From: Candidatus Atabeyarchaeum deiterrae
Lineage (GTDB): Archaea > Asgardarchaeota > Atabeyarchaeia > Atabeyarchaeales > Atabeyarchaeaceae
Length of the DNA: 64,000 bases
Assembly: GCA_037310415.1 (NCBI GenBank)
Contig: CP147780.1
Location: forward strand, 2,692,680-2,756,679
Reading direction: 5' to 3'
The notes beneath the pieces were generated by a model. The model was not told the DNA's origin. It saw nothing but the letters and a program-made list of their open reading frames with translations, and ran no database searches. A program made the position numbers and the translations under genes. Positions 8,077-37,779 of this stretch are shown here, piece after piece (the stretch's first letter is position 1; each line of letters opens with the position of its first letter).

Positions 8077-10473
8077 ATGGGAGACATTTCTTTACTCTTT
8101 ATTCTAGGTCCTCCTCTGATAATCACAATGATCCTGCTCCCATTCGTCCGGTCCGACATCAACAGACGATTCTGCCAGACCTTGTTTCTCATCATCTGGG
8201 CAAAAGCGTTCATCGACATACTCCAGTTTCTCAGCGGCTCTGTCAACTACATCCTTGGCCCAGCTCAAGGAGTAAACGATGCAGTGCTCGGCGCACAGTT
8301 CGGGTTGGGAGTATTCTATTCTGGAGCTTGGCTGCTTGAAGAGTTGCTTCTATGGGGATTTGTCGCGTTCTTCGCCGTCCTCATAGGATCATTTTACCTA
8401 TTCATTACAGTTTCGAGGAAAAAGGGTGGATCCATTGCAGATAAGATGAGTCGAGTAAGCTTCTCAAAAACCCTCGAGAATCCACTAGTATCTGCATTCG
8501 ACTTCAATAGCTTTGAGACCTACCTCATAATTGGCCTGGTGACTCTTCCGTCCATGATATCAATTTATGTCGGAGTTATTATGGCCGGTTACTCTGTTTT
8601 TGCAGTCAACGTCGTGTATCTCGCGCTACTACTCTACAGGTTCTCCCTGATGGCATATACAAGGATTGCAGGAAAAGCTGATCTGCACCTCGACAAAGAA
8701 GACATTGGACGCAAGTACCAAAGAAGAAATCTGGGCTGGTTCACAATTCTGAACTTGATCATCTCGGTAGTGACACTGAGTTACACGCTGGTCTTTACGA
8801 ATGTTGATTTGGGGACCCTTGCCAATGCTACCCTGGGTGAGCTGCAGGAATTGCTGGTTGCGATCTTAGTACTTCCGTTCGCAGAGGGCTTCGCCGTACT
8901 CTTCTTCCAGAGATTTTGGCGATTCTGGTCTCGACTAGGAACCCGCATACGCGGAATAAAAATAAGACCTGCGCTATATTCCCTCTTCAGAGGTCTGTTG
9001 GTCAGTGGTGCTTGCTTCATTTTCCTATACTCGCTTCTGTCATTCGTCATAGCAACAACAGTATTTTTCTCATCTCAGCAAACTGTTCCACCGACGTTTA
9101 ATATTGAGGCAGGATCGCTGTGGATATACAAGGAGTTCTTGAGGTTGTCCCCCACGGGCATTCCTCAAGCAACGCCGAGTATTCTGTGGATGCTTCCAAT
9201 GTTCTGGGGTCTGGCAGGTCTCTTCTTGTTCCAGTTCATCAAAGTCCTGATAGGCGGTTCCCTAACGCATAGGAAGGGCGTCGCCCCAGAGTACAGCATC
9301 CTCGTCGCGAGTATCACGATCGCCGTACTGATCTGGGTGCTCATACCCGCTTTGAACGCCTTCTTAGGATATTTCTTGGTATATCTGACGGCTCCGAGCG
9401 GCGCAGCAACTTGGACCCGTTTGATTCTCCCGACACCGCTGGTAAGCTCTCTAGCAATAATCTATCAGTTCATACCAGCGCCCACCGATCTTCTATACAT
9501 ACTATTTCTGGATCTGCCTATCTGGGTGTTCGGGTCACTGTTCCTCACCTACTTGTTCAAGTTCAGAAGAGAGTTGATTCCAGCGAAGAAGGAACCTGGC
9601 GTTTTCAGGATACCTGATTTCTTTAAGCTTTTCATATCGTTTTGTATTGTTATAGTCGCTTCGGTCGCCACGATCGCCTTGATAGGGCCAACGACGCCTG
9701 CCGGAGACTTCGTAAATTGGCTTCTAAGTAAACTCTGGTATCCTAATGCAAGCGAATCACTATTGTTTGCAGTTATTGGGCAGTGGTACGTATTCTTCCA
9801 CAACATGCTTCGATTCATTCTCACGGTGTTCGCCCCACTATTGTTCTGGGTAAGCATTGTTGGAATCTGGAAAGCGTGGCGAAGGCATGAAAAGGTAAAG
9901 AGTTTGAAATGGTATATCTTGGCGATTGCTCTCTTTGCATTGGAAGCAGTCTTCTTCGCAGATAGATTCACTTACATAGCAATCATAGTTATACCGCTCG
10001 TACTATCGGCGTTATACAGGCTGTTTTACCGTATCGTGAAGAGAGTCCCACCAAAGACAATGTTCAGAACAACCTTCCTTAAGATTGCATTCTACTCGTT
10101 AATTCTGAGTGAAATCTACTCGACCGCGATATCCATAGCAGATAGGTATATGTTCGGCTTTTCTTCCGCGGGCAGCGTGGGGTTGTTTTTCTTCCTATTG
10201 GAATTGATACCTCATGGCATAGTCGAGATTCCTGCAGCGATACTCGCGGGCATGATTGGGTTATACATTGCAAGGAGAATGACGAAGGCCCTAGACGAGG
10301 ACGAACGAGGTCTGAACAAGTTCATGGCTGGAGGAGAAAACCTTTTCTGGTCTCGAAAAGTTTGGTATCCGATCATTTTCGTAACAATCTTCTTCGTGAT
10401 CGCAGCGGCACTGGAGATCTACGTTGCTTGGGACATAATGGCGCCTCTTGCCAGTCTATATGGATTTGCCTAG
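8077..10473 (+). CDS. large polytopic membrane protein with C-terminal SpoIIM-like domain
   Basis: Many hydrophobic helices; C-terminal LIPHGIVEIPA...AAALE matches the SpoIIM/DUF95 signature. Confidence 0.7.
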   Translation: MGDISLLFILGPPLIITMILLPFVRSDINRRFCQTLFLIIWAKAFIDILQFLSGSVNYILGPAQGVNDAVLGAQFGLGVFYSGAWLLEELLLWGFVAFFAVLIGSFYLFITVSRKKGGSIADKMSRVSFSKTLENPLVSAFDFNSFETYLIIGLVTLPSMISIYVGVIMAGYSVFAVNVVYLALLLYRFSLMAYTRIAGKADLHLDKEDIGRKYQRRNLGWFTILNLIISVVTLSYTLVFTNVDLGTLANATLGELQELLVAILVLPFAEGFAVLFFQRFWRFWSRLGTRIRGIKIRPALYSLFRGLLVSGACFIFLYSLLSFVIATTVFFSSQQTVPPTFNIEAGSLWIYKEFLRLSPTGIPQATPSILWMLPMFWGLAGLFLFQFIKVLIGGSLTHRKGVAPEYSILVASITIAVLIWVLIPALNAFLGYFLVYLTAPSGAATWTRLILPTPLVSSLAIIYQFIPAPTDLLYILFLDLPIWVFGSLFLTYLFKFRRELIPAKKEPGVFRIPDFFKLFISFCIVIVASVATIALIGPTTPAGDFVNWLLSKLWYPNASESLLFAVIGQWYVFFHNMLRFILTVFAPLLFWVSIVGIWKAWRRHEKVKSLKWYILAIALFALEAVFFADRFTYIAIIVIPLVLSALYRLFYRIVKRVPPKTMFRTTFLKIAFYSLILSEIYSTAISIADRYMFGFSSAGSVGLFFFLLELIPHGIVEIPAAILAGMIGLYIARRMTKALDEDERGLNKFMAGGENLFWSRKVWYPIIFVTIFFVIAAALEIYVAWDIMAPLASLYGFA

Positions 10474-10688: not shown

Positions 10689-11051
10689 TTGAAGCAAGCA
10701 GAAGAGCATACCACAAGCAGGAGTCTGATACCGTTGTCGTGTTGGGAAGAATTCTTTGCAGGCGAACTTAGCAGATTAAAAGACTTCTATTTGATTCAGA
10801 TCAGCAAAGAGGACTGCAAAGAAGTCGAAGAATGGCTGAGAGACACACTCGAGTCAGCTACTGTGCAGAGCTGTGTAGACAAGCTGAGAGTCATGCCCAC
10901 CACTGAGCTCAGACAACTTAGATATGACCTCGTGCAGCTGATCAAGAGAATTCACAGAAACAAGACTAGCGAAAGACTCAGCAAGGTTCAGGCTGTTGGC
11001 GCAGCAGATGAACTTGATGAAAGAAGAACACGTGATCGCAAGGTCGAATAG
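10689..11051 (+). CDS. hypothetical helical protein
   Basis: Open frame 10593-11051. An in-frame TTG at 10689 lies downstream of a TATA-like TTATTTAA. Charged, helical composition. Confidence 0.5.
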   Translation: MKQAEEHTTSRSLIPLSCWEEFFAGELSRLKDFYLIQISKEDCKEVEEWLRDTLESATVQSCVDKLRVMPTTELRQLRYDLVQLIKRIHRNKTSERLSKVQAVGAADELDERRTRDRKVE

Positions 11052-11252: not shown

Positions 11253-12404
11253 CTATTTTGTCCAGAGTTTTGGTATGAGATCCAGTATTCTTGTTCTCAG
11301 AATTGGGATAGCTCTCTCAACCCTAGCTTTTGCTAGGGTGTCACAGAATGGCACTTCAGTGGCATTCGAGTCGACGAAGAGTGGTTGGAATTTGAAGAGT
11401 TTGAGTTTCTTCGATCCATTGGCATCGGCGCCTGGTAGAAGACTGAAACTGAGAGCTGCGTACTGTTTTCCAAACCACGAAAGTTCAGTTTCCATTCTGC
11501 ATGTCCATATTAGCGCCACTTCCTTCCCGTAGACTGTGGGAGGACCAATGATAGGCGGGGTCTTCAATGGTAACTCCAGATCTTCACCAGGATTGACTTT
11601 CCCATTTTCTTTGAGTATGAATCCTGCCGATCCGACTCTGTCCGCCATTAATGGGCTAGCGTTCCAGCAGTCTATTAATCCCCTGAAACCATTCACCTTC
11701 CCGCCCTTTGGCGTCGGATTCCAGACCTTCAGCTGCAGGTCAAGTCCTTGACGTTGCTTCGTGTACTTTGAGGGGGCTTTGAGTTCACCAACTTCAGTGA
11801 ACTTGGCTGTGACTGACTCACCAGTCGATATCTCTGAAGGGGCATATTTGATTATTAGTGGTTTCACAGCTCTATCATACGAGGAGTCCTTCTGGAGAGA
11901 CAGGCTATGGACGAAACCTGATCCTATCGTTGATGCATCAGACAATGTGGTCTTTTCTTCCTCGTTGATCCCGATTTCTTCTCGGATCCTCTCAGGAATG
12001 TTTTCCATGAGCCATGACATCTCGCCAGATTCTCTCACTGGCTTTGCCAACACCGCGAAGATGTTCCAGCCCCATGCAATGTCAACTCTTCCTTGCTTTC
12101 CCTTGGAGGCGAACGTCGGCGGATAGGCAAACTGAAACTCTGGATCCTTGGGTGTCTGGAAGATCACATCAAAGAAGCTTTTGTTAGCTATTGGTTTATT
12201 CTCAACCAATGTGACTCCCCAATCATAAACGAGAGTCTGCCGGATTTGTTTCTTGCCACTAGATATGATTGTGCTGTTCTCGGCACATACAAGGCCGACT
12301 CTTAGATGCCCAGGCTTTTTGTAGTCGGAATCAATGAGGATTCTGCATCTGATGGGCTCACCCATCAAGTAGTTATCTTTCTCTGTGAATATCTTTATTC
12401 CCAT
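11253..12404 (-). CDS. arrestin-fold protein (N- and C-type arrestin domains)
   Basis: YLMGEPIRCRI...LRVGLVCAE...FQTP...YPPTF...IAWGW, followed by a second sandwich LKVWNPT...VNPGE...LKTP..GPPT.YG..V.L.W. Confidence 0.65.
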   Translation of the reverse strand: MGIKIFTEKDNYLMGEPIRCRILIDSDYKKPGHLRVGLVCAENSTIISSGKKQIRQTLVYDWGVTLVENKPIANKSFFDVIFQTPKDPEFQFAYPPTFASKGKQGRVDIAWGWNIFAVLAKPVRESGEMSWLMENIPERIREEIGINEEEKTTLSDASTIGSGFVHSLSLQKDSSYDRAVKPLIIKYAPSEISTGESVTAKFTEVGELKAPSKYTKQRQGLDLQLKVWNPTPKGGKVNGFRGLIDCWNASPLMADRVGSAGFILKENGKVNPGEDLELPLKTPPIIGPPTVYGKEVALIWTCRMETELSWFGKQYAALSFSLLPGADANGSKKLKLFKFQPLFVDSNATEVPFCDTLAKARVERAIPILRTRILDLIPKLWTK

Positions 12405-12528
12405 GTACTGTCGACTCCTGCGAATATCGCAGTCATGAAACGTGAAAATGCGAAAGCTGGAACTATGGAAGAAAGAAGCGTCCGTGTGGTATTAATAGGT
12501 TTTGCCTTTGAGGGCAATTATCGGAGGG

Positions 12529-12933
12529 TCATTTGAGAAGTTCAACCATCTCTGCAGGTATGGCGACAGGCTGGAAGTTCTCATTTATTGCCACAACCTT
12601 CACGTTACCGCTAGCTGACAGTTTCCCGGAAGTCTTATTGTAAACAGAAAATTCGTATCTGATGCTTGTTCTCCCTACCGCACCAATTTTCAGTTCTATC
12701 TCAAGTAGATCATCAAATCTCGCAGGTGAGAAATACTGGCAGTAGGCTTCGACTCTCGGTAAGCCGAAGATCTTCTCCTTCACTTTGAAGTCTGAGAAAT
12801 CTATTTTGAGTACTTCTCGAAAGAGTTTCTGTTCGGCCACCTCGAAATAACCGAAGAAATTCGTGAAGTGGACTATTCCTGCAGTGTCTGTCTCCTTCCA
12901 CCTCACTCTGACTTCCTCTTTGATTGATTTCAA
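12529..12933 (-). CDS. acyl-CoA thioesterase (4HBT/YbgC hotdog fold)
   Basis: VRWKETDTAGIVHFTNFFGYFEVA. Confidence 0.88.
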   Translation of the reverse strand: MKSIKEEVRVRWKETDTAGIVHFTNFFGYFEVAEQKLFREVLKIDFSDFKVKEKIFGLPRVEAYCQYFSPARFDDLLEIELKIGAVGRTSIRYEFSVYNKTSGKLSASGNVKVVAINENFQPVAIPAEMVELLK

Positions 12934-13194
12934 GAGATATCACCAATCTAGCTGAGGTATTGTACTCAAGTAGTCACCTTATTACATTTCAGTTTCGACT
13001 ACATAGAGTGACCCGTTCAGATTTCAGAGACGGTTGCGACTTTCCCAAAATAGACACGCAGATTTAAGAAGCTTTATGAGTTAAGAAGAGTAAGTACTAG
13101 CGGCGGTCTCAGAGAATCGTAGCAATGACTAACTCTCCGTGGATGCCTGTTGGGGAAACTAGTATCTATTTCATTTTGAGATCAAACGTGAAAT

Positions 13195-13812
13195 GTGGAG
13201 GACAAGGCAGAGTTGCAGGTGTTTAAGGTCATCGCTGTGGGTGACGGTTCAGTGGGCAAGACCAGCATTACAATTCGGTTCTGTGAAGGCAAGTTCTCGC
13301 AGGAATACTTGATGACAATAGGCGCGAATTTTGGAGTGAAAGCGCTTTCCGTCCCCTTCGGAGAGGAAGTCAGGGAAATCAAACTGCAGATTTGGGACAC
13401 GGGAGGACAGGAGAGGTTCAGCCCCATTCGCGAGCTCTACTACAAGGGAGGGCTTGCAGCAATAGTGGTCTTTGACGTCACGAATAGAGAAGGCTATGAC
13501 CATTTACCTATGTGGTTCAATGAGGTGCGAAAGAACGTTCCCAACATACCGCTAACTCTCGTTGGTAATAAGATAGACATCCCAAATAGAGTCATCACAT
13601 ATGAGGAGGGGCTGCGGATGGCAAAGAGGTGCGCAGCTCCTTACAGAGAGACATCAGCAATGACTGGCGAGAGAGTTGATGAAGTGTTCAGTGAATTAGC
13701 ATACAGGATCCTGCTGTCGTTGTACGGCCCTCCGAAGGTGGGTGGACAAACTGTTATTGGCATACCTAAGGATCTTCAGAGATATAATTCGCAGGCTCAA
13801 GGGAAACGATAA
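13195..13812 (+). CDS. Rab-like small GTPase
   Basis: GDGSVGKT, TIGANF, KLQIWDTGGQERF, YYKGG, NKID, ETSA. Confidence 0.93.
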   Translation: MEDKAELQVFKVIAVGDGSVGKTSITIRFCEGKFSQEYLMTIGANFGVKALSVPFGEEVREIKLQIWDTGGQERFSPIRELYYKGGLAAIVVFDVTNREGYDHLPMWFNEVRKNVPNIPLTLVGNKIDIPNRVITYEEGLRMAKRCAAPYRETSAMTGERVDEVFSELAYRILLSLYGPPKVGGQTVIGIPKDLQRYNSQAQGKR

Positions 13813-13870: not shown

Positions 13871-14947
13871 TTATCGGGAGCATTTCTCAAGAATTCGGTC
13901 GATTGCATCCATCGGACTCTCCATCTTTGTGAGCAACCTCTTAGTATTTACTCTGAATTTGCTGGGGTTGCGCAGGATTGCCAAGGCATGACTTGTTACT
14001 TTGCCCATGTCCGCCGAGCAGTAAATTGGAAATCCCTTCTTTGATAGGTATCTTTCCACATCCATGGCTTTCGGAAAATGGCAAATACTTGGAACACCAA
14101 GTAGAGCAGCCTCCCAACTCATCGTTCCTCCCCCACTAACAGTCAGCGTCGAGAAAGCTATCAGACTCGGTCCATCTATCGCCTTGTCTGGTACAATCAC
14201 TTGGCCAGCGAATCGTTCCAAGGTGGCTCGGCGTTGTTCCTCGTAGCGCGGAAGCACGACAATCTGAGTGCTTGGGAACTCTTTCAGAATCTTCTCGATT
14301 AGGGGTGTTCCCTTCAACTCTAATGCATTGACGTCCTTTAGCCCTCGCATGTACGCTGCCTTGGATTCTTCGGGTCTGATCACGACTATAGGTTTCTGTT
14401 CATCCAAGCCTAGTGCCTTGAGTACAGAGGAGTCAGGTTTGACATTCGGTATCCAGGCAACTTCATCAACGCCATCGTATTGAACGATTGATTCTTTGCT
14501 TGCCCCAAGCTTGAGTAGCTTGCTCGGGCTAATGCATTTGGGAGTCACAACATAAGTGGAAAGTGGAAAGCTTAGTTTGCAGACGGCGATTGAGTGGGGA
14601 GTGTCGTTCAAGCAGATGCTGGTCAATCCAAGCCCGAATGCAACCCTTGCTGCTTCTGGGGAGCTGAAATGCATTGAGAAGTCTATCTCTTTGCATGAGG
14701 GGGAGATGAAATCCGTCAGACTGAGTACCCTTTTGGTGCTTGCTCTCAGCTTTCCTTCGAGGGTTTCTCCACCATATTCTCCGGCAACAAAGTGAGGAAT
14801 CCGCTTGAGTTTCAAGAGATCAATAACGACATCGTGGACTCTAGTCGTCACAATGACCCTGTTACCTTTTGCTTCCAAGTCTCTCTTGATGCTCTCAAAA
14901 AGCAGAACTTGCTTAGGCGTCATTATGTCGAGCCAGAATGTCATCAT
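13871..14947 (-). CDS. DUF354 family (predicted glycosyltransferase-like) protein
   Basis: WLDIMTPKQVLLF, SPEAARVAFGLG, DTPHS, RPEE, GGGTMSWEAALLG. Confidence 0.85.
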   Translation of the reverse strand: MMTFWLDIMTPKQVLLFESIKRDLEAKGNRVIVTTRVHDVVIDLLKLKRIPHFVAGEYGGETLEGKLRASTKRVLSLTDFISPSCKEIDFSMHFSSPEAARVAFGLGLTSICLNDTPHSIAVCKLSFPLSTYVVTPKCISPSKLLKLGASKESIVQYDGVDEVAWIPNVKPDSSVLKALGLDEQKPIVVIRPEESKAAYMRGLKDVNALELKGTPLIEKILKEFPSTQIVVLPRYEEQRRATLERFAGQVIVPDKAIDGPSLIAFSTLTVSGGGTMSWEAALLGVPSICHFPKAMDVERYLSKKGFPIYCSADMGKVTSHALAILRNPSKFRVNTKRLLTKMESPMDAIDRILEKCSR

Positions 14948-37215: not shown

Positions 37216-37779
37216 ATGGAACAGCCTACAAGACAATACAGCTTTAAGATTGTAGTTCTCGGAGATTGGGCTGTGGGAAAGACCAGTCTCGTAAGGAGAC
37301 ATGCTAAAGGTAAGTTCACTTTTGATACAAAAGCCACGATCGGCGTAGATGTGACCACGAAACAATACAGGCTCGAAGGCGGAATAACAATTACGTTGGC
37401 AATTTGGGATGTGGCTGGGCAGGAATTCTGGAGTTCGGTGAGGCACCAGTACTACGGAGGAGCCAATGCGGCGATCTTGGTTTTCGACTTGACGAGGCCC
37501 GAATCATTCTGGCATATAAAAGCGTGGTACGTTGATCTCAGAGACAACTTAGGGCAAAAGGTCCCAGTTGTCTTGTTGGGGAATAAGACGGATCTCCCTG
37601 ATCAGAGAGCTGTTACTCTAGGCGAAGCATCTGAGCTTGCCGATGGTTACGGTTTCAAGTACTTTGAGACTTCTGCTGCCACGAGCGAAAACGTTGATAG
37701 AGCTTTCTACAACTTGCTCGCTCAGATAATCATCTCCAAGAAGATTGGGATGGATGTCTTTGGGATAAGGGAAGTGTGA
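37216..37779 (+). CDS. Rab-like small GTPase
   Basis: GDWAVGKT, TIGVDV, WDVAGQE, YYGGA, NKTD, ETSA; ATG at 37216 follows GGGAG. Confidence 0.93.
   Translation: MEQPTRQYSFKIVVLGDWAVGKTSLVRRHAKGKFTFDTKATIGVDVTTKQYRLEGGITITLAIWDVAGQEFWSSVRHQYYGGANAAILVFDLTRPESFWHIKAWYVDLRDNLGQKVPVVLLGNKTDLPDQRAVTLGEASELADGYGFKYFETSAATSENVDRAFYNLLAQIIISKKIGMDVFGIREV

Follow-up and report, generated by a model that had tools for sequence, protein, structure and literature searches.

A probable arrestin-clan protein encoded beside a Rab-like GTPase in the Asgard archaeon Candidatus Atabeyarchaeum deiterrae

The arrestin-like gene and its product

The stretch of DNA analysed here, referred to below as the window, comprises the last 64 kb of the single-contig, 2,756,679-bp genome (contig CP147780.1) of Candidatus Atabeyarchaeum deiterrae, a wetland-soil Asgard archaeon of the Atabeyarchaeia. 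At positions 11253-12404 on the minus strand, the window contains an open reading frame of 383 amino acids (P0001) that is labelled 'hypothetical' in public records, and for which a preliminary description had proposed a two-domain arrestin/Vps26-like protein encoded in a divergent locus with a strongly Rab-like GTPase. In the AlphaFold2 (AF2) model of the protein, which was built from a 13-sequence alignment, two beta-sandwiches (amino acids 1-120 and ~175-340) are joined by three short helices and followed by two C-terminal helices. On the minus strand, the N-lobe (amino acids 1-120) maps to 12045-12404, as delimited by the AF2 strands, VIA-align and hhalign; the inter-lobe acidic helical insert, or hinge (amino acids 121-165), maps to 11910-12044, as indicated by the three predicted helices, its charge and its invariant residues; and the C-lobe (amino acids 166-345) maps to 11370-11909, as delimited by AF2 strands, hhalign and language-model features. 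The C-terminal helices (amino acids 346-383) occupy 11256-11369 and were recognized from the model, the hydrophobic moment and conservation; the last of them is a basic amphipathic helix (amino acids 361-381).

The features that had been read from the sequence earlier were all recovered. The quoted arrestin-N and arrestin-C motifs are present, in both halves of the protein, and the two PPT-containing strands lie at amino acids 95 and 288, near the end of each lobe. The acidic insertion carries a net charge of -5 and is predicted to be helical, its three short helices having low predicted local distance difference test (pLDDT) values in the AF2 model. Because the start of this segment (K121, V123-M129 and W131-M133) is invariant in 13 of 13 sequences, the inter-lobe segment appears to be a functional element and not a loose linker. 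The amphipathic tail shows a hydrophobic moment of 0.48, the highest in the protein, and a net charge of +2 to +3; the helices of the model span residues 355-362 and 365-382, and the amphipathic helix is conserved among the orthologues. The C-terminus is thus helical in the model, in contrast to visual and beta-arrestins, in which the C-tail is a strand locked onto the N-lobe. A pattern search of the 383-residue protein found no PPxY motif, in agreement with the preliminary description, and no LPxY or clathrin-box pattern either.

The spacer between the arrestin-like gene and the thioesterase gene upstream of it measures 124 nt here and 122-127 nt in all relatives. At 12490-12496, this spacer contains a TATA-like heptamer, all seven bases of which are invariant in 8 orthologous, otherwise variable intergenic regions; the heptamer is preceded by an A-run and lies ~89 nt ahead of the start codon, and together with the A-rich stretch upstream, which resembles a B recognition element (BRE), it covers 12490-12503 on the minus strand. 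By analogy with the archaeal promoter layout, the arrestin-like gene most likely possesses its own promoter and leader and would constitute an independent transcription unit; with this conserved TATA-like box in front of it, the gene does not simply share an operon with the thioesterase gene. In the leader, RNAalifold applied to 10 sequences yielded a small and weakly supported hairpin (12415-12432, minus strand) of 6 base pairs with a 3-nt loop, which overlaps a GGAG ribosome-binding-like site and shows one compensatory change from A-U to G-C, in 3 sequences. A scan for sigma-70-type promoters and terminators gave nothing above shuffled sequences, such models not being applicable to archaea. 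The spacer with its heptamer and hairpin may be a regulated leader.

We identified 12 orthologues of the protein with 65-73% identity, nearly all of them exactly 383 amino acids long, and because their alignment spans the whole protein and contains no internal gaps, we conclude that the gene is genuine and evolves under constraint. One relative is labelled Candidatus Njordarchaeota in nr, and a paralogue search gave one protein labelled Atabeyarchaeia-1. Two complete Atabeyarchaeia genomes share ~70% amino-acid identity (PMC11291895), so that the arrestin-like protein evolves at the genome-average rate. In an exhaustive phmmer search of 1.84 billion cluster representatives, the protein retrieved its own cluster only. 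When 400 Asgard genomes were scanned with a profile, the arrestin-like family was detected in all three genomes of its own taxonomic family, and the 397 other genomes gave no credible match but only noise (E of at least 0.1, the matches at E 0.1-0.4 being short). By these searches, the arrestin-like family appears to be confined to Atabeyarchaeia. In one wetland metatranscriptome library, a 266-nt contig is identical to positions 11702-11967, which hints at transcription of the gene, albeit weakly, DNA carry-over being possible; among the RNA runs, one yielded two short contigs that cover parts of the stretch, and three others yielded nothing.

Fold and relationship to arrestins

When the AF2 model was compared with the PDB by Foldseek, as had been suggested earlier, the best 50 matches were all arrestins (visual arrestin, beta-arrestin and the alpha-arrestin ARRD-6), with E-values down to 4e-11. 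The block-mean pLDDT of the strands is 48-76, mostly above 60, in the N-lobe, and 31-75, mostly 57-75, in the C-lobe. A VIA-align search of 48,161 representative chains, which is independent of Foldseek, ranked first the N-lobe of ARRDC3 (4r7x; Z 10.3, 126 residues aligned, root-mean-square deviation (rmsd) 4.6), followed by the N-domain of TXNIP (4gej; Z 9.9, 125 residues aligned, rmsd 3.1) and ARRD-6 of C. elegans (7usy; Z 9.7). Lower scores were obtained for Vps26 (Z 8.9), Vps26C (8.7), arrestin-1 (8.6), Spo0M (8.3) and Rgp1 (7.8). Among the rows of the ESM Atlas shape search that carry a family, arrestin/Vps26 clusters were the only ones, and with language-model features of the whole protein (score 0.90), 10 of 10 family-bearing matches belonged to the arrestin clan. 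The same was true of all family-bearing neighbours of the C-terminal half alone (score 0.87). By language-model features, the closest clusters are bacterial families of the Arrestin_N/Spo0M kind, and Vps26 clusters turn up in the Atlas searches as well.

Because Z-scores of 9-10 do not lie far above those of beta-sandwiches in general, evidence was also sought at the level of sequence. The 383-residue protein matched no NCBIfam model and neither the Spo0M nor the Vps26 signature of Pfam, and a profile search of PDB sequences with the arrestin-like family gave no match. In whole-genome scans, the Arrestin_N and Arrestin_C models matched only one other locus, near 2.054 Mb, and the Vps26 model matched nothing; BLASTP between the arrestin-like protein and this Pfam-positive arrestin of the same genome gave E-values of 0.002-0.005, with the PPT strands in register. 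The profile-profile signal came from hhalign against a broad reference profile, and from this profile only, consisting of 37 Pfam-positive arrestins from across Asgard genomes: the N-lobe matched it with E 1.9e-7 (probability 93.7%) and the C-lobe with E 1.6e-4 (probability 50%). Reversed-query controls yielded E-values of 0.09-0.4, and none of the 60 block shuffles per lobe reached the observed scores (best shuffle 28.8 vs 49.0 for the N-lobe and 22.1 vs 34.0 for the C-lobe). The N-lobe aligns best to the canonical C-lobe, as is possible between homologous arrestin halves. Foldseek, VIA-align, the ESM Atlas and hhalign with its controls all back the tandem arrestin/Vps26-type fold that had been proposed, and we consider it very probable that the 383-residue protein belongs to the arrestin clan. 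Assignment to a subfamily is not possible, since the lobes of alpha-arrestins are structurally nearest and yet the PPxY motifs that define those proteins are absent.

The comparison with individual arrestin-clan systems brings out both likenesses and differences. Alpha-arrestins including TXNIP provide the best structural matches (N-lobe, 125-126 residues at rmsd 3.1-4.6) and share the two-lobe layout and the PPT strand near the end of each lobe. However, the archaeal protein is only ~11-13% identical to them, has no PPxY motif, escapes detection by the Arrestin_N and Arrestin_C models of Pfam, and possesses an acidic helical insert and a C-terminal amphipathic helix. In alpha-arrestins, PPxY and LPxY motifs recruit Nedd4/Rsp5-type HECT ligases. 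The Spo0M protein of Bacillus subtilis (5cl2) matches the N-lobe at rmsd 2.8 over 106 aligned residues, but the likeness covers one lobe only and there is no Spo0M match in Pfam; the function of Spo0M is, to our knowledge, poorly defined. The canonical Asgard arrestins that served for comparison belong to the same clan by the profile-profile analysis and occur in the same host lineage, but are Pfam-positive and lack the helical insert and the C-terminal amphipathic helix of the arrestin-like family.

The single canonical arrestin of this genome (P0019; ~2054100-2055130, minus strand) has Arrestin_N and Arrestin_C matches of 84.6 and 33.8 bits, respectively, and a C-terminal zinc ribbon, and is located away from any GTPase gene. 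A zinc ribbon forms the C-terminus of the canonical arrestins of Atabeyarchaeia, three of which (P0028, P0033 and P0035) add a Prok-RING_1 domain (31-33 bits vs a cut-off of 29.1) together with a borderline zf-RING_2 match, an arrestin-RING fusion that recalls the recruitment of ubiquitin ligases by alpha-arrestins. In one Atabeyarchaeia-1-like genome (G003), four Arrestin_N genes are clustered within 11 kb. Beyond Atabeyarchaeia, Pfam-positive Arrestin_N genes were detected in 61 of the 76 genomes of one Asgard family (f31), where they often form tandem pairs; across the other families sampled, no more than three genomes contained them.

Neighbouring genes and gene order

The gene that separates the arrestin-like open reading frame from the divergently transcribed GTPase gene is, as previously proposed, a thioesterase gene of the 4HBT/YbgC type (P0002; 12529-12933, minus strand). 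Its product matches 4HBT_2 with E 6e-11 (43 bits vs a cut-off of 25.5) and TIGR00051 with 75 bits (cut-off 68.7), and is accordingly classified as a YbgC/FadM-type hotdog acyl-CoA thioesterase; the gene is present in all orthologous loci. The GTPase gene beyond it (P0003; 13195-13812, plus strand) encodes a Ras-family protein (E 1e-48) that is indeed strongly Rab-like, in that its best 60 PDB matches are all Rabs, among them Sec4, Rab14, Rab1 and the Thorarchaeota Rab 7ezb. The P-loop, the DTGGQE, NKID and ETSA boxes and the KLQIWDTGGQE-type segment are invariant in 8 orthologues, and the orthologues are 73-79% identical, the tail included. This C-terminal tail of ~30 residues is conserved and rich in proline and glycine, and takes the place of the prenylated hypervariable region; the last 45 residues contain neither a cysteine nor a prenylation motif in any of the 8 orthologues. 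Full-length orthologues of P0003 were found only in the same 3 Atabeyarchaeia genomes that have the arrestin-like gene.

A second Rab-like GTPase, the distance to which had been put at about 1.2 kb, was located 1.25 kb further on (P0005; 15062-15583, minus strand; Ras family E 9e-50), its best matches being Rab6, Sec4 and Rab11. Between the two GTPase genes lies a gene for a DUF354 protein (13871-14947, minus strand; PF04007, E 9e-49), and a third Ras-family GTPase of the window is encoded at ~37246-37728 on the plus strand (170 bits to the Ras model). On the other side of the arrestin-like gene, and convergent with it, a gene at 10734-11051 (plus strand) encodes a small helical protein of ~105 amino acids, which gave no match in a Pfam search and is 40-44% identical to the products of 105-111-codon genes at the same place in relatives. 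This small gene is always convergent to the arrestin-like gene and is much less conserved than its neighbours. Further out, a polytopic membrane protein of 798 amino acids is encoded at 8077-10473 on the plus strand; its C-terminus is weakly SpoIIM-like (25.2 bits vs a cut-off of 26.9). The DUF354, second GTPase and polytopic protein genes belong to the context of the locus and not to its conserved core.

Gene order was compared with seven metagenomic loci that contain distinct orthologues and with two reference genomes, 10 orthologous loci being counted in all. The four-gene core, consisting of the genes for the small helical protein, the arrestin-like protein, the thioesterase and the Rab-like GTPase, is uninterrupted in 10 of 10 loci. 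The flanks do change: a pair of genes for an XPB helicase and a DUF790 protein (Bax1-type nuclease) lies between the small protein and the polytopic protein genes in 2 loci, the DUF354 gene is absent from its position in one locus (L001), and an extra 289-codon gene is located beside the GTPase gene in another. The XPB and DUF790 insertions (L024:9692-12736 and L027:7295-8659) mark a local rearrangement hot spot. Over ~20 kb, the loci are collinear, from the genes for a tRNA synthetase, a pyridoxal-phosphate (PLP) decarboxylase and a glycosyltransferase through to a V4R pair. Because all the loci come from one collinear lineage, conserved adjacency would be expected even without a functional connection. 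The persistence of an unbroken core amid changing flanks is only a mild argument for linkage. Thus, the synteny check suggested earlier bore out the order of the arrestin-like, thioesterase and Rab-like genes in every orthologous locus but, coming from a single collinear lineage, supplied only weak evidence of linkage.

Proposed role and its alternatives

The reading that we favour, with a probability of roughly 0.6, is that the product of this gene is a cytosolic arrestin-clan protein with two lobes, a strongly diverged, Atabeyarchaeia-specific paralogue of the Asgard arrestins, which is expressed from its own promoter and acts as an adaptor near the membrane. Under this model, the protein would function as a protein-protein adaptor close to the membrane, with the two beta-sandwich lobes providing partner-binding surfaces as they do in other proteins of this fold. 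The lobes are connected by the invariant acidic helical segment, which could serve as a hinge or a docking site; the basic amphipathic C-terminal helix could be either a membrane anchor or a latch that folds back in the manner of arrestin C-tails. Lacking PPxY, the protein would not recruit a ubiquitin ligase by that motif, unlike alpha-arrestins. The neighbouring Rab-like GTPase, by virtue of its position alone, is the obvious candidate for a partner, although we regard this pairing as doubtful.

Several observations weigh against this reading. No Pfam family, the arrestin-clan models included, was matched by the 383-residue protein even at E-values up to 1, and when a shallow profile built from just the nearest canonical paralogues was used in hhalign, the match was non-significant (E 0.035). 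Confidence in the AF2 model is low (mean pLDDT 59.6), and the orientation of the lobes is unlike that in arrestins, which is why the whole-chain template modelling (TM) score in Foldseek is only ~0.24, with an rmsd of ~22 Å over both lobes. The VIA-align scores of 9-10 are modestly above a beta-sandwich background of Z 7-8, and by structure the C-lobe alone ties with generic sandwiches, namely the FXIII barrel (Z 9.7) and TMEM106B. When the C-terminal half was folded alone, the model was worse (pLDDT 52.8), and Foldseek returned nothing below 1e-3; the arrestins in its output were interspersed with lectins and capsid proteins. The synteny reflects a single lineage of ~70% amino-acid identity and general collinearity, and is weak evidence of linkage. 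Finally, we arrive at the adaptor mechanism, at a role of the C-terminal helix at the membrane and at a candidate partner by inference only.

The alternative that fares best coincides with the proposal of the preliminary description, namely, that the locus encodes an adaptor-GTPase module. Here the arrestin-like protein would serve the adjacent Rab-like GTPase as an effector or would regulate it; it would be recruited in the GTP state, perhaps via the conserved C-terminal tail of the GTPase, and would sort a membrane protein. The adjacency of the arrestin-like, thioesterase and Rab-like genes in every orthologous locus despite insertions and losses in the flanks, the confinement of both the arrestin-like protein and the tailed Rab-like paralogue to the same three of three Atabeyarchaeia genomes, and the Rab-like character of the GTPase in its switch regions and Rab-family motifs all speak for such coupling. 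However, with one lineage collinear over ~20 kb, the adjacency may be nothing but inherited order, and the two genes belong to different transcription units on opposite strands, with the thioesterase gene between them. Moreover, the genome encodes 29 Ras-family proteins, and GTPase genes are not clearly enriched around canonical Asgard arrestins, a Ras-family gene being present in 3 of 30 such loci (95 kb in total) against ~1-2 expected. The membrane protein suggested as cargo, the polytopic protein at 8077-10473, can be discarded, there being no basis for this role; the XPB-Bax1 pair parts its gene from the core in 2 loci. What stands of the module proposal is the gene arrangement, which is kept in every locus, and we consider the module doubtful as a whole. 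Its most specific form, in which the arrestin-fold protein binds the adjacent Rab-like GTPase directly and in a nucleotide-dependent manner, docking on the conserved Cys-free tail, appears to us unlikely.

Less plausible still is that the protein is not homologous to arrestins but only converges on them, being a generic tandem of Ig-like beta-sandwiches such as the barrels at the C-terminus of transglutaminases. In favour of this explanation, the FXIII and TG3 barrels and TMEM106B reach the level of arrestins in comparisons with the C-lobe or with both lobes (Z 8.6-9.7), at a lower rmsd, and the silence of Pfam and the low confidence of the model point the same way. Convergence, however, is hard to reconcile with the hhalign similarity of both lobes to Asgard arrestins, which is far above the reversed and shuffled controls, or with the composition of the Foldseek matches (exclusively arrestins among the best 50) and of the language-model neighbours (exclusively arrestin clan), and we regard it as improbable.

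A subunit resembling Vps26, in a coat of the retromer or retriever type, would share the two-lobe arrestin-type fold, and Vps26 and Vps26C do match the protein over both lobes, at the Z-scores given above, in addition to the Vps26 clusters returned by the Atlas searches. Nevertheless, the N-lobes of alpha-arrestins outscore Vps26, and the Pfam model of Vps26 matches neither the protein nor anything else in the genome. Furthermore, no Vps35 was detected in the genome, which would leave a retromer-like complex without its partner, although this argument is weak because the Vps35 model matched no control genome either. We consider a coat subunit highly improbable. Equally remote is a role in lipid or acyl metabolism together with the upstream thioesterase, for example as a lipid-anchor chaperone like RhoGDI, PDE-delta or UNC119: the same-strand arrangement of the two genes in all loci, 124 nt apart here and with the spacing preserved, is countered by the conserved TATA-like box between them, by the lack of a C-terminal cysteine or an N-terminal Gly2 in either Rab-like GTPase (P0003 and P0005) in any orthologue, and by the absence of RhoGDI, PDE-delta and UNC119 chains among the fold-search matches listed. 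The same lack of lipidation motifs in both GTPases led us to reject the related suggestion that the thioesterase acts on lipid anchors of the GTPases.

The eukaryotic signature proteins listed for Asgard archaea include arrestin-domain proteins as well as Rab-like GTPases, and in eukaryotes, retromer is recruited by Rab7. We know of no archaeal arrestin whose function has been established. Genes with arrestin N- and C-domains have been reported for the Asgard lineages Lokiarchaeote CR_4 and Hermodarchaeota (cited in bioRxiv 10.1101/2021.04.02.438162), and arrestins are listed among the proposed membrane-remodelling systems of Asgard archaea (10.1101/2025.11.06.686947); the paper on the Atabeyarchaeia genomes does not mention arrestins (PMC11291895), and our search of the literature available to us found none that links Asgard arrestins to GTPase neighbourhoods. 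Asgard arrestins as such are therefore already known, and the family described here is a divergent, sequence-hidden variant of the arrestin clan.

An arrestin-fold family that is invisible to Pfam implies that profile-based censuses undercount arrestin-fold proteins. The locus also offers a compact, testable pair, namely, a protein of the arrestin fold that is set apart by its hinge helix and C-terminal amphipathic helix, and a lineage-matched, tailed Rab-like GTPase. Should the two fail to bind each other, this would warn against deriving trafficking modules from the order of genes where genomes are collinear. Should they bind, this would be direct evidence of coupling between a GTPase and an adaptor before eukaryotes; and if the docking were nucleotide-dependent, a prokaryotic Rab and an adaptor of the arrestin/Vps26 fold, the pairing behind the recruitment of retromer in eukaryotes, would have arisen, or been kept, in an Asgard lineage that branches deeply.

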